A DNA stretch of 64,000 bases, taken from assembly GCA_944390915.1 (NCBI GenBank), contig CALXRS010000005.1, positions 7,663 through 71,662 on the forward strand, read 5' to 3'. The notes under the pieces were generated by a model. The model was not told the DNA's origin. It did no database searches and saw only the letters and a program-made list of their open reading frames with translations. This document shows, in pieces, positions 45,494-63,952 of the stretch. Origin of the DNA: an uncultured Alphaproteobacteria bacterium. GTDB lineage: Bacteria; Pseudomonadota; Alphaproteobacteria; RF32; CAG-239. The number at the start of each line of letters is the position of its first letter. The stretch's first letter is position 1. The translations under genes were made by a program, and so were the position numbers.

Positions 45494-45569
45494 GGGTGTG
45501 TAGCTCAGCGGTATGAGCACTACGTTGACATCGTAGGGGGCACAGGTTCGATCCCTGTCACACCCACCA
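45494..45569 (+). tRNA. tRNA-Val (anticodon GAC), CCA encoded
   Basis: Cloverleaf folded by hand: acceptor GGGTGTG/CACACCC, D arm GCTC/GAGC, anticodon arm CTACG-TTGACAT-CGTAG, T arm ACAGG-TTCGATC-CCTGT, discriminator A plus CCA. Confidence 0.93.
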
Positions 45570-60572: not shown

Positions 60573-62522
60573 TTGCCGACAAAACAGACATCGGTTTTGG
60601 TTACGGAACGCGGCCGCGGTTTTTTGTGGTGGCCGGTCTTTTTCGGGCTGGGCATCGGCATATATTTTCTGTTGCCTGCCGAGCCTTCGCCGGTTGTTAT
60701 CGGCACGCTTTTGCCGGTTTTGACGCTGTTGTTGTTTTTGTTTCGCCGTCGTCCGGTCGTTCGCGGAGCGCTGTGGCTGTTGTGGCTGGTGGCGGCGGGT
60801 TTTGCGGATATGGAACTGCAGACGTTTTTGCTTATGCCGGAAGAACCGACCAAAGCCGAGCGCAAACTTTATATTTCCGGACGGATAGATGTGATAGATA
60901 CCAATTACAACGGCCGTCAACGGATTTTGCTGTCGTCGATGAAAGATTTTGACGACAACCCGCTGCCCGGACGTTACCGGCTGACGCTTATCCACCGGAA
61001 CAACAATTTTAACGCGGGGGACTGCGTGGAACTGATAGGCGTTGTTTCGCCGTTGTTCAAGCCGAGTGTGGCCGGCGGTTACCAGTCGAACCGCAATCTT
61101 TATTTTGCCGGCATCAACGGTTCGGGCTACATTCCGAGCGAGGTGCTGAAGCTTGACTGCCCCGCCGGCGGCAGGCGATTCGGCGACCGGGTGGCAAAAC
61201 TGAGAGATGACATTGCCCGCCGGATACACCGTGTTCTGCCGCCCGACGAAGCTTCGGTTGCGGTCGCGCTCATTGCCGGAGATCAAACGGGCATAAGTCG
61301 GCGCCTGATAGAAGCGTATCGCGATTCCGGTCTGGCGCATTTTCTTTCCATTTCCGGCGTGCATATGAGCATGCTGGCGGGGTTGATGTTTTTTCTGGTG
61401 CGGGCGGGCATGGCTCTGGCGGCGCCGCTGGCACTGAGGTTCAACTCCAAAAAGACGGCGGCATTCCTGTCCATTTTGGTCAGCGCGGCCTATTTGCTGT
61501 TGTCGGGCATGCCGGTGCCGGCGGTGAGGGCTTTTTTGATGACTTTGGTGGTGCTGCTGGCGGTGTTGTTTGAACGCGAGGCCGTTTCCGTGCGCACGCT
61601 GGCTTTGTCGGCCCTGATTGTTTTGATTATCGAGCCGGCCGCGCTGGTCGGGGCCAGCTTTCAGATGTCTTATGCCGCGGTTATCGCTCTGGTTGCCTTT
61701 TACGAAAAATTTGCCGGTCGTCTCAACCGCTTTTTGACCGCCGCCGACGTTTCTCTGCCGCGGCGGATTATGCGCGGGCTGGCGGTTTACCTAATCGGTG
61801 TGTTGGCGGCCGATTTGGTGGCGTCGCTGGCAACATTGCCGTTTGCGGTTTTCCATTTTAACCGGGTTGCGCTTTGCACCAGCCTGACCAATTTACTTTC
61901 CGGTCCGGTTATTGCTTTTATCATCATGCCCTTTGTGCTGGTTTCGCTTTTGGCTTTTCCTTTCGGGTTGGAGTTTGTGCCGCTGAAAATTGTCGGTTTC
62001 GGGGTGAAAATTGTCAACGATCTGACCCTGTGGGTGGCGTCTTTGCCCTATGCCGCGACGAGTGTTCTTTCCATGCCGCTATGGGGCTTGTTGCTGATTG
62101 TGGCAGGCGGTTTACTTCTGTGCCTGTTGCGCAGCCGCCTGCGTTTGTGGGGAGCGGCGGCGATTGTGCTCGGCGCTTTGAGCCTGCTTGGCGTAAAACG
62201 TCCGGAAGTGATAGTTGATGCCGAAATCAAGACCGTTGCCGTGCTCGATTCTCAAAGCAAAAGCTATTACTTTTTGCCGCGTCCCGACCGTTGGAACAAA
62301 CAAAACTGGCTGAGCAAATTTGCCGCCGCGGAAACGAAAGACAAACCGCAAAACTCCCTGTGGCCGGCACGGATAAAAATCAAACAGGGAAAAAGCATCT
62401 TTGTCGACGGCCGAGAATTTGACGTGCGCTCCGCCGGCGGCACGGCTTTTTATGACAATAACGGCAAAATTACGGCCAAAACGGTGCGTGCCTATACCGG
62501 CCGCCGACCGTGGAACATGTAA
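60573..62522 (+). CDS. comEC: ComEC/Rec2-family DNA internalisation channel (no C-terminal beta-lactamase-fold domain)
   Basis: Multi-TM protein with the competence-domain motif SGLAHFLSISGVHMSMLAG. TTG start at 60573 with GGAAGGA upstream. Confidence 0.85.
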   Translation: MPTKQTSVLVTERGRGFLWWPVFFGLGIGIYFLLPAEPSPVVIGTLLPVLTLLLFLFRRRPVVRGALWLLWLVAAGFADMELQTFLLMPEEPTKAERKLYISGRIDVIDTNYNGRQRILLSSMKDFDDNPLPGRYRLTLIHRNNNFNAGDCVELIGVVSPLFKPSVAGGYQSNRNLYFAGINGSGYIPSEVLKLDCPAGGRRFGDRVAKLRDDIARRIHRVLPPDEASVAVALIAGDQTGISRRLIEAYRDSGLAHFLSISGVHMSMLAGLMFFLVRAGMALAAPLALRFNSKKTAAFLSILVSAAYLLLSGMPVPAVRAFLMTLVVLLAVLFEREAVSVRTLALSALIVLIIEPAALVGASFQMSYAAVIALVAFYEKFAGRLNRFLTAADVSLPRRIMRGLAVYLIGVLAADLVASLATLPFAVFHFNRVALCTSLTNLLSGPVIAFIIMPFVLVSLLAFPFGLEFVPLKIVGFGVKIVNDLTLWVASLPYAATSVLSMPLWGLLLIVAGGLLLCLLRSRLRLWGAAAIVLGALSLLGVKRPEVIVDAEIKTVAVLDSQSKSYYFLPRPDRWNKQNWLSKFAAAETKDKPQNSLWPARIKIKQGKSIFVDGREFDVRSAGGTAFYDNNGKITAKTVRAYTGRRPWNM

Positions 62523-62696: not shown

Positions 62697-62981
62697 ATGG
62701 TTATGACATGGGAGTACATTTTGTTGGCCGGCGTTGGTGCCGTTGTCGGATCGCTTTTTATAGCGGAAGCGGAAAAAGTGAATCTGGGATGCTTTTTCCC
62801 GACGTTGGGTTTTGCTTTCATTATCGGTGCCATTTACTGCATCTGGCAGGCTTTTGCTAATTCCCTGCTATACGGTTTTTTGGCCCTGGTCGTTGCGATA
62901 GTGGGAATGATTGCCGTCGGCCTTTTTGCAAGGTTTACGGAAAACGTGGGACCGCGTGACGACGGTTTTATGAATCTGTAA
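62697..62981 (+). CDS. small membrane protein, tandem paralogue 1 (94 aa)
   Basis: 2-3 TM helices. It shares the WQAFANS motif and overall layout with paralogue 2. An alternative ATG lies at 62703. Confidence 0.6.
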   Translation: MVMTWEYILLAGVGAVVGSLFIAEAEKVNLGCFFPTLGFAFIIGAIYCIWQAFANSLLYGFLALVVAIVGMIAVGLFARFTENVGPRDDGFMNL

Positions 62982-63000
62982 CGCCATTATCAAATTTTAT

Positions 63001-63081
63001 CTGTTTTCCCCTGCCGGTTTTTGCCGACCGGGGATTTTTTTTGCCCGCCGGCAAAAGGAAAATCTTTTTGACTTTTGCGGC
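63001..63081 (+). repeat. conserved terminator/promoter cassette, copy A
   Basis: CTGTTTTCCCCTGCCGGTTTTTGCCGACCGGGGATTTTTTTTGCCCGCCGGCAAAAGGAAAATCTTTTTGACTTTTGCGGC is nearly identical to copies B and C. It includes TTGACT (63068-63073). Confidence 0.85.
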
Positions 63082-63157
63082 CGAAAGGATTACCTTAATA
63101 ACGTATACGAAAAATTTTTTTAACTACTTTTATAATTTTCGATAAAATACAAAACAT

Positions 63158-63442
63158 ATGGAATGGATTTTTGTTGTTATGTCCGGTATCGGTATTCTGA
63201 TTACCGGCGTTTGCTTTGCCTTTGACAAAAGATGCAATTCGTCTTGCCCGCCGTCGCAAGAAGGAACGGAAAGCATGTCCTCGTTTCTTTTTGCGGTTGT
63301 TGCCGGTTTTTCGCTTTTCGGAGCGGCGGCAGGTCTGTGGCAGGCATTTGCAAATTCGGTTGCAAACGGCTTGTTGGCTCTTTCGGCGGCGGTTGTTGCC
63401 GGTATTGTCGGCTGTTTCCTCAGGCGTATGATTACATATTAG
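63158..63442 (+). CDS. small membrane protein, tandem paralogue 2 (94 aa)
   Basis: MEWIFVVMSGIGILI...AAVVAGIVGCFLRRMITY. Confidence 0.65.
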   Translation: MEWIFVVMSGIGILITGVCFAFDKRCNSSCPPSQEGTESMSSFLFAVVAGFSLFGAAAGLWQAFANSVANGLLALSAAVVAGIVGCFLRRMITY

Positions 63443-63535
63443 CCCGTATCCTGTTTTTTATTCCCCCGCCGGTTTTTGCCGACCGGGGATTTTTTTGCCC
63501 GCCGGCAAAAGGAAAATCTTTTTGACTTTTGCGGC
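63384..63535 (+). repeat. conserved gene-3'-end/terminator/promoter cassette, copy B
   Basis: Near-identical to 63838-63952. It contains two hairpins with T-runs, then TTGACT-17-TATCTT (63522-63550). Confidence 0.85.
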
Positions 63536-63611
63536 AAAAAAAGCTATCTTACGGTATATTCAAAAATTTTTTTAACCATATTTATATTGTTTACTGAAAA
63601 AAACAACCACT

Positions 63612-63896
63612 ATGGAATGGAGATTTATTATTATTTCCGGCGTCGGCATTTTGATAGCCTGTATCTGCGGCGCCCTGTCCGAAAGGATGAAATTTGCGCA
63701 CCCGCTCCCGCAAACGGAAGCCGAAGCCATGCCTGAAACAATTTTTTCATGCCTGGCGTTGTTTGCTTTTATTTTTGCGGTGTTAAGCATTGTCAATGCG
63801 TTTGCGGCTGCTTTTGTCAGCGGTTTATATGCTTTGGCGGCGGCGGTTGTTGCCGGTGTTATCGGCTGTTTCCTCAGGCGTATGATTACATATTAG
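63612..63896 (+). CDS. small membrane protein, tandem paralogue 3 (94 aa)
   Basis: MEWRFIIISGVGILI...AAVVAGVIGCFLRRMITY. Confidence 0.65.
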   Translation: MEWRFIIISGVGILIACICGALSERMKFAHPLPQTEAEAMPETIFSCLALFAFIFAVLSIVNAFAAAFVSGLYALAAAVVAGVIGCFLRRMITY

Positions 63897-63952
63897 CCCG
63901 TATCCTGTTTTTTATTCCCCCGCCGGTTTTTGCCGACCGGGGATTTTTTTTG
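63838..63952 (+). repeat. conserved gene-3'-end/terminator cassette, copy C
   Basis: Identical to copy B through GGGGATTTTTTT, then diverges. Confidence 0.85.

Follow-up and report, generated by a model that had tools for sequence, protein, structure and literature searches.

The DNA analysed here, referred to as the window, is a stretch of 64,000 nucleotides from an uncultured Alphaproteobacteria bacterium (contig CALXRS010000005.1 of assembly GCA_944390915.1; lineage RF32, CAG-239), which holds close to its right-hand end a tandem array of three small paralogous genes, designated P1, P2 and P3. The corresponding open reading frames (ORFs) comprise 94 codons each and are located on the plus strand, like comEC and the array elements given below, at positions 62697-62981, 63158-63442 and 63612-63896, with a spacing of 461 and 454 nucleotides, as reported in an initial annotation. 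Between the convergent core genes comEC and prfC lies a small variable island, of which the array makes up the right-hand portion. On the left, comEC/rec2 (60573..62522; Pfam Competence, 4e-59) is not a member of the family, and in related contigs a sequence matching the last 35 nucleotides of the window lies directly against the prfC stop codon. Thus, in this strain the array does not extend past the window edge, where prfC follows, and the further copies that the initial annotation thought possible beyond it are absent; at this position, a fourth paralogue, P4, is present in other strains. Between-strain comparisons were made with gut-metagenome contigs that contain the same locus with approximately 97.5% identity in comEC (contigs are numbered with the prefix L).

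The kinship of the three ORFs was apparent from a phmmer comparison within the local ORF set, which yielded E = 1e-22 for P2 versus P3 and 2e-6 for P1 versus P2. P2 and P3 are 47% identical at the protein level, P1 is 23-35% identical to both, and a W-Q-A-F-A-N-S turn is common to all three. In line with the initial annotation, these values and the repeated cassettes described below identify a tandem family of small paralogues, in which P1 shares both the WQAFANS motif and the downstream hairpin module. Translation of P1 probably starts at the ATG at 62703 (MTWEY...), parallel to the MEW of P2 and P3, because codon 1 of the longer frame at 62697 reads ACG in most other strains. The P1 gene (62703..62981) would consequently encode 92 amino acids with three predicted transmembrane (TM) helices and a conserved C-terminal tail, GPxDDGFMNL; it has orthologues in two sister species. 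The P2 gene (63158..63442; 94 amino acids, three TM helices predicted) is carried by few strains, and the P3 gene (63612..63896; 94 amino acids, three helices predicted) encodes a protein that is identical in every long contig examined. The earlier description of 94 residues and two to three helices for each ORF thus fits P2 and P3 in length, with P1 probably being shorter and three helices being predicted throughout.

Comparison of P2 and P3 revealed a mosaic of similarity. Codons 76-94 are 95% identical with a proportion of synonymous differences (pS) of 0, and the next approximately 55 nucleotides after the stop codon are identical, a shorter extent than the approximately 90 nucleotides given initially, although the 3′-terminal near-identity as such was correctly noted. 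The first 17 codons show 75% nucleotide identity and a pS of 0.49, which does not agree with the nearly identical 5′-ends described before. Codons 18-62 are 47% identical, so the centre is indeed heavily diverged; since it is saturated at both site classes (pS 0.66; proportion of non-synonymous differences, pN, 0.50), its dN/dS ratio is uninformative. The lack of synonymous differences in codons 76-94 and the identity of the non-coding terminator, next to a saturated centre, mark the 3′-end and terminator of P2 and P3 as homogenised by recent conversion or recombination onto old paralogues, and read in this way the 3′ identity does not indicate selection on the protein ends. Of the two processes proposed initially, gene conversion at the ends is therefore retained for the 3′-end, the 5′-end not being homogenised, and diversifying selection in the centre is not supported in view of the saturation of the P2/P3 centre and the purifying selection seen among P1, P3 and P4 alleles.

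Each gene is predicted to form an autonomous unit consisting of a sigma-70-type promoter, an A/U-rich leader devoid of a Shine-Dalgarno (SD) sequence, the ORF and an intrinsic terminator. The P1-P3 cassettes have in common a good -35 element (TTGACT or TTGTCT), a spacer of 16-17 nucleotides and a -10 element of the form TAnnnT. The promoter-like site of P1 (62618..62645; TTGTCT-16-TATTCT) is homologous to those of P2 (63068..63096; TTGACT-17-TACCTT) and P3 (63522..63550; TTGACT-17-TATCTT). A promoter of the extracytoplasmic function (ECF) type was considered and rejected upon reading of the sequence: neither the EcfG-like motif GGAAC-N16-CGTT nor RpoE-like motifs are common to the three cassettes, unlike TTGaCT-16/17-TAnnnT.

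The putative leaders of P1 (62652..62702; approximately 52 nucleotides, 19% GC), P2 (63104..63157; approximately 54 nucleotides, 15% GC) and P3 (63558..63611; approximately 54 nucleotides, 19% GC) all lack an SD sequence, and their folding energies fall within those of shuffled controls, indicating no structure beyond chance. Among four strains, the P2 leader contains no variable site; the remainder of the spacer varies. SD-like motifs, many of them canonical GGAG, are found near a start in 28 of the 37 long ORFs of the window. In agreement with the initial annotation, no SD sequence was detected upstream of P1, P2 or P3, nor upstream of any sister-species homologue. Translation would accordingly start on the A/U-rich leader independently of an SD sequence.

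The hairpin CCGGTTTTTGCCGACCGGGGATTTTT occurs in three exact copies in the 64 kb, one after each ORF, with none expected by chance. The first putative terminator (63008..63042) consists of a G+C hairpin followed by T8, the second (63463..63496) is the hairpin copy after P2, and the third (63917..63951) is followed by the sequence abutting the 3′-end of the convergent prfC gene just outside the window. We considered the hairpin as a genome-wide element resembling repetitive extragenic palindromic (REP) sequences and rejected this view, as within the 64 kb it is present at these three sites only. A second small hairpin or palindrome (TTTTGCC-CGCC-GGCAAAA) is located at 63039..63056, with a copy of the same type at 63493..63510. 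Together with the terminator and TTGACT-17-TA[C/T]CTT, it makes up a module of approximately 94 nucleotides that is common to the P1-P2 and P2-P3 spacers. The second hairpin and promoter precede P2 and P3, and after P3 the first hairpin alone is present; hence, the succession of two hairpins and a promoter-like site noted initially holds after P1 and P2 and fails after P3. Across strains, the second hairpin has two alleles, GCCCGCCGGCAAAAGG and GTCCGCCGCAGCGGGG (GCAAAA to CAGCGG), both of which, judged by eye, can still form a small G+C hairpin. Moreover, a TTTTG-N-CAAAA palindrome similar to the second hairpin sits inside each promoter spacer, so that the second hairpins may be operator sites rather than parts of the terminator.

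A consensus scan, which RNA genes may escape, did not reveal any promoter-like or terminator-like site that the cassettes have in common on the minus strand. Searching the whole window with Rfam yielded one tRNA (45494-45566) at the gathering threshold and no match inside the cassettes. In the sister species, a P1-type gene and a second small gene, termed Q-type, form a bicistron without an internal terminator, which suggests that equipping every gene with its own promoter and terminator is an elaboration peculiar to the species of the window.

P1, P2 and P3 are genuine genes under purifying selection. For P3 we counted five substitutions across nine strains, all five of them synonymous (chance under random placement approximately (66/282)^5 = 7e-4), and the P3 protein, which is the same in every strain, is indexed in 95 blocks of the sequence collection. 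Likewise, the three between-strain substitutions in P2 are all silent, compared with 18 variable sites in the adjacent spacer. P1 alleles differ with a pS of 0.16-0.32 and a pN of 0.03-0.06 (pN/pS approximately 0.15), and pN/pS amounts to approximately 0.2 among P4 alleles. In addition, P1-type proteins of two sister species, which are 23-27% identical across species, keep the motifs KVNLGCFF and C-terminal GPxDDGFMNL; the flanking DNA and the terminators in these species are unrelated. The initial annotation had named the lack of a coding signature in relatives as the finding that would speak against it; the silent changes and low pN/pS values provide such a signature.

P4, the more distant paralogue between P3 and prfC (80 amino acids, GC 38%; L001:10418-10660), was also observed in L003, L004, L006 and L007. 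It has a near-consensus promoter-like site of its own (TTGACA-17-TATCAT) and a terminator that differs from the P1-P3 type. L006 carries a deep P4 allele (pS 0.40).

The composition of the array varies between strains. Besides the order comEC-P1-P2-P3-prfC of the window, the species shows comEC-434aa-P1-P3-prfC, where 434aa denotes a gene for a protein of 434 amino acids, the same order with P4 added, comEC-P1-P3-prfC (L081) and 434aa-P1-P2 (L082). In L081 the P1-P3 spacer is a clean chimera, the left part of which corresponds to the P1-P2 spacer of the window and the right part to the P2-P3 spacer. The switch point lies inside the shared module, within a direct repeat of 68 nucleotides containing an exact run of 46 nucleotides. 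The left copy of this repeat (63014..63081) comprises the terminator, the second hairpin and the -35 region, and its partner is located at 63469..63535. The chimeric spacer therefore defines P2 as one exact unit of 454 nucleotides between direct repeats, an arrangement characteristic of deletion or of unequal homologous recombination. The array would thus grow and shrink through unequal homologous recombination between the repeated modules, with the module at 63014..63081 as the crossover substrate for gain and loss of P2.

The island is a hot spot of nucleotide diversity (π), which amounts to 0-0.02 in the flanks, to 0.013-0.064 in the gene for the 434-amino-acid protein, to 0.07-0.08 in both P1 and P4, and to 0.005-0.013 in the P3 cassette. 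At the 3′-end of comEC, over the last approximately 150 nucleotides (window approximately 62390-62522, corresponding to L001:7799-7948), π rises to 0.077, compared with approximately 0.01 elsewhere in this gene. It may be that recombination tracts of the island reach into comEC. Third-position G+C content (GC3) is 0.40-0.54 in the island genes and 0.66-0.70 in comEC and prfC, a modest difference.

Prediction of the P3 structure by AlphaFold2 (AF2) from a family alignment of seven sequences resulted in helices at residues 3-29, 36-66 and 68-93, with a mean predicted local distance difference test score (pLDDT) of 80.5, and hydropathy agrees with three helices. P1-P3 are accordingly predicted to be three-helix inner-membrane proteins, for which an N-out/C-in orientation is proposed because Lys and Arg residues are concentrated in loop 1 and the C-terminal end. 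In this topology, the conserved WQAFANS turn would face the periplasm, and the part diverged between P2 and P3 would correspond to the cytoplasmic loop, which contains an insert of 13 amino acids relative to P1, and to TM2.

A hidden Markov model (HMM) of the family matched six entries among 1.84 billion representative proteins. Five of these are P1-, P2- or P3-type proteins of this lineage; the sixth, a protein of 1758 amino acids, was judged spurious. In agreement with word-indexed searches, the relatives found are confined to the comEC-prfC gap, or the vicinity of prfC, in three related species. No significant match was obtained for P1-P4 in Pfam, NCBIfam, PADLOC or PHROGs, the best being DUF4282 (E = 0.046, below the cut-off) and a PHROG of unknown function (E = 0.02), and the best sequence-profile match in the PDB had E = 1.7, so these searches assign P1-P4 to no described immunity family. 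Foldseek searches with the P3 model returned generic helical matches only (best E = 0.78 in the PDB and 0.65 in BFVD). Moreover, tblastn against plasmids and phages, searches of JGI metagenomes with the terminator pattern and P1, and a search of IMG/VR with P3 remained without a match.

The gene tables of the 20-kb loci list comEC, prfC, tig and the 434-amino-acid protein, which has a cytoplasmic look, as neighbours of the array, and they do not contain a recombinase. The closest reference species shares 64% identity in ComEC, and relatives have been deposited under names such as 'Azospirillum sp. 51_20' and 'Proteobacteria bacterium CAG:495'. Across species, the comEC-prfC gap is empty in L012, L015 and L016, holds a hydrophilic ORF of approximately 440 codons alone in L010 and L011, and contains this ORF together with small hydrophobic ORFs in L014/L078 and L019. 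In most strains and many sister species, the gene for the hydrophilic 434-amino-acid protein (L001:8117-9421) fills the space between comEC and P1. The window and L081 lack this gene, which would fall between 62522 and 62612, and have an identical replacement sequence of 90 nucleotides instead; the boundary of presence and absence lies just upstream of the promoter-like site of P1. The AF2 model of the 434-amino-acid protein is confident (pLDDT 90.7) and has no fold match in the PDB (best E = 0.06). Its 24 homologue clusters are all unnamed, its best family match is phrog_34070 of unknown function (E = 8.9e-5), and a Pfam match fell below the cut-off. We therefore set this neighbour aside as a functional clue, neither a fold match nor a named family having been obtained. 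Reading of its sequence revealed the motif FIxxLxAxGNxCL[TS] twice, which suggests an internal duplication.

The Q-type protein is a second small three-TM protein of 85-103 amino acids that starts with MG[TP]DII. Its gene is located 10-42 nucleotides downstream of the sister-species P1-type gene and lacks an SD sequence (for example L078:6290-6547 and L074:2134-2445). We rejected it as a relative of the P family, given an hhalign probability of 0.1%. In addition, a very large autotransporter gene (1482-1713 amino acids) is found downstream of tig in a strain-dependent manner (L001:14905-20046; L005:14519-18967), representing a second strain-variable site approximately 4 kb from the array.

The anatomy of the array and its mode of evolution are well supported. 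As to the function, we tentatively suggest, by analogy, that the P proteins might be immunity- or exclusion-like protective membrane proteins. Acting within the inner membrane like the microcin immunity protein MceB, they would neutralise a membrane-targeting agent, such as a phage or a pore-forming toxin, with individual paralogues and alleles directed at different variants of this agent. In favour of a protective role we count the elevated π of P1, P4 and the comEC 3′-end relative to the flanks, the presence or absence of whole cassettes, the GC3 below that of the flanks and the several divergent paralogues with predicted autonomous expression, as well as a size and predicted topology equal to those of MceB and the likeness to orphan immunity arrays of gut bacteria. 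The whole account, comprising cassette anatomy, recombination and the guess at a protective role, appears to us about evenly poised between right and wrong. A bolder form of it, which we hold to be rather unlikely, would be a recombinase-free cassette system of membrane immunity or exclusion proteins, in which the terminator-promoter module acts as a homology patch for the gain, loss and swap of units. Each strain would then hold its own repertoire against membrane-targeting toxins or phages, and the proteins would constitute a new class of immunity proteins.

Several observations weigh against this account. Gene tables and domain scans did not reveal any toxin, secretion, export or phage gene near the array, and among 15 billion proteins no family homologue adjoins a toxin, as would normally be seen for an orphan immunity gene. 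The alleles are under purifying rather than diversifying selection. With regard to the anatomy, the assignment of promoters, terminators and transcription starts goes back to consensus matching only, and the -10 elements (TACCTT, TATCTT and TATTCT) are weak. Moreover, in L007 (1468-1776, protein P0003) a deletion of one nucleotide at codon 38 of P3 leads to a frameshifted product of 92 amino acids; either this copy is a pseudogene or the assembly is at fault here. Finally, the invariance of P3 and its apparent presence in every strain, as well as the synteny of P1-type genes across three species, look more like a resident cellular function.

The P proteins could instead be resident small membrane proteins without any part in conflict, serving an inner-membrane complex as modulators, accessory subunits or stress proteins, with copy-number differences arising by near-neutral recombination between repeats. 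We consider this possible, if doubtful, and give similar weight to the corollary that the adjacency to comEC is incidental, the gap between two convergent genes simply tolerating insertions. The identity of the P3 protein in every strain, the purifying selection throughout, the lack of conflict-system genes nearby and the P1-type orthologues that keep their C-terminal motif and chromosomal place in three species all fit such a function. However, it leaves unexplained the pS of 0.3-0.4 in P1 and P4 versus 0.03-0.08 in the flanks, the presence and absence of P2 and P4, and the low GC3. The comEC-prfC gap is empty in several sister species, so the function is dispensable in the lineage, and small stress-protein families such as PF04226 gave no match even at E <= 10.

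We regard it as improbable that the P proteins are self-acting membrane permeabilisers, resembling type I toxins or holins and kept low by inefficient initiation of translation, perhaps together with an RNA that escaped detection. The tandem arrangement of small hydrophobic ORFs with their own promoter and terminator and with a long leader lacking an accessible ribosome-binding site is reminiscent of Ldr, Ibs and Zor. Class I holins comprise about 95-110 amino acids and three TM helices, a format that the predicted three-TM proteins of approximately 95 amino acids fit. However, the leaders are unstructured and, therefore, the start is not sequestered, and the consensus scan revealed no shared minus-strand promoter or terminator for an antisense RNA. 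Likewise, there is no phage or lysis context and no match in PHROGs, phages or IMG/VR, and P2 and P3 are devoid of the charged C-terminal domain of holins. Moreover, membrane toxins of type I systems are generally shorter than 60 amino acids and contain a single alpha-helical TM segment (PMC8309996), compared with 92-94 amino acids and three predicted helices here.

The notion that the cassettes are a repeated intergenic hairpin element with spurious 94-codon frames, in which only the terminator-like repeat is functional, could invoke the non-coding nature of the best-conserved inter-cassette stretch (terminator, second hairpin and -35 region) and ORFs lacking SD sequences and database homologues, but it is refuted by the codon-level tests (all-silent P2 and P3 changes beside more variable spacers; pN/pS of 0.15-0.2 in P1 and P4) and by the retention of P1-type proteins and their motifs in sister species despite unrelated flanks and terminators, and with the hairpin absent elsewhere in the 64 kb we give it hardly any credence.

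If the protective reading were true, the locus would provide a first glimpse of how uncultured gut Alphaproteobacteria, a poorly known group, defend themselves against other bacteria or phages, and it would imply that ordinary homologous recombination at a terminator-promoter repeat suffices to build and reshuffle arrays of the immunity type, with no integrase. Regardless of the function, the array is a clean natural example of the lineage-specific expansion of a small-membrane-protein family with homogenisation of the 3′-end and terminator, as well as an example of what appears to be translation from A/U-rich leaders lacking an SD sequence, although SD sites are used elsewhere in the genome. 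Metagenome-assembled genomes commonly contain orphan small membrane proteins; here, the cassette architecture and the recombination module are unusually clear. We consider the locus a well-documented orphan gene family and not a breakthrough.

Comparison with known systems reveals partial resemblances. GlsB/YeaQ/YmgE proteins (PF04226) comprise approximately 80 amino acids with three Gly/Ala-rich TM helices and often occur as several paralogues. The tail of P4, GIAGMIAGGVIGYLWG, is superficially similar to these proteins; however, PF04226 was not among the Pfam matches at E <= 10 for the seven family members scanned. Class I holins resemble P1-P3 in length and in the predicted number of TM helices. 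They differ from the P proteins in that the array lacks a prophage, endolysin or spanin context and any PHROGs or viral match, and in that P1 shows an MVM double start in the window but not in other strains, where codon 1 is ACG.

Like the type I toxin-antitoxin loci Ldr/Rdl, Ibs/Sib and Zor/Orz, the P array consists of tandem direct repeats of a few hundred nucleotides, each with promoter, long leader, small hydrophobic ORF and terminator. ZorO was discovered in a search for small hydrophobic ORFs duplicated in tandem (PMC8309996). In contrast to these loci, which employ an antisense RNA and a structured 5′-untranslated region, the P leaders are unstructured and antisense signals were not found in the cassettes by the consensus scan.

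The acquired interbacterial defence (AID) and rAID-1 clusters of gut Bacteroidales are co-directional orphan immunity arrays with repetitive intergenic sequences, a G+C content lower than the genome average and strain-variable occurrence (bioRxiv 10.1101/471110). The P array likewise comprises at least two co-directional genes separated by repetitive intergenic sequences, has a GC3 below that of its flanks and varies between strains. However, rAID-1 clusters are defined by a 5′ XerD-like recombinase, reside on mobile elements and contain homologues of known immunity genes of the type VI secretion system (bioRxiv 10.1101/471110), whereas the gene upstream of the P array is comEC, a recombinase is lacking, and the at most four genes have no homology to known immunity genes. 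Moreover, the repeat of the P array is a terminator-promoter module and not attC-like.

MceB, which confers immunity to microcin E492, is an integral membrane protein of 95 amino acids with three hydrophobic domains (PMC8021565). With 92-94 amino acids and three predicted TM helices, P1-P3 fall within the MceB-like range of approximately 70-100 amino acids and two to four TM helices, and they are strain-variable and stand apart from any enzyme function. Unlike MceB-like immunity proteins, the P family adjoins no microcin structural, maturation or exporter gene, is found at this locus only and has no sequence or profile similarity to them. Taken together, the P family belongs to no described family, and in kind it resembles both the loci of tandem small hydrophobic genes and the immunity arrays.

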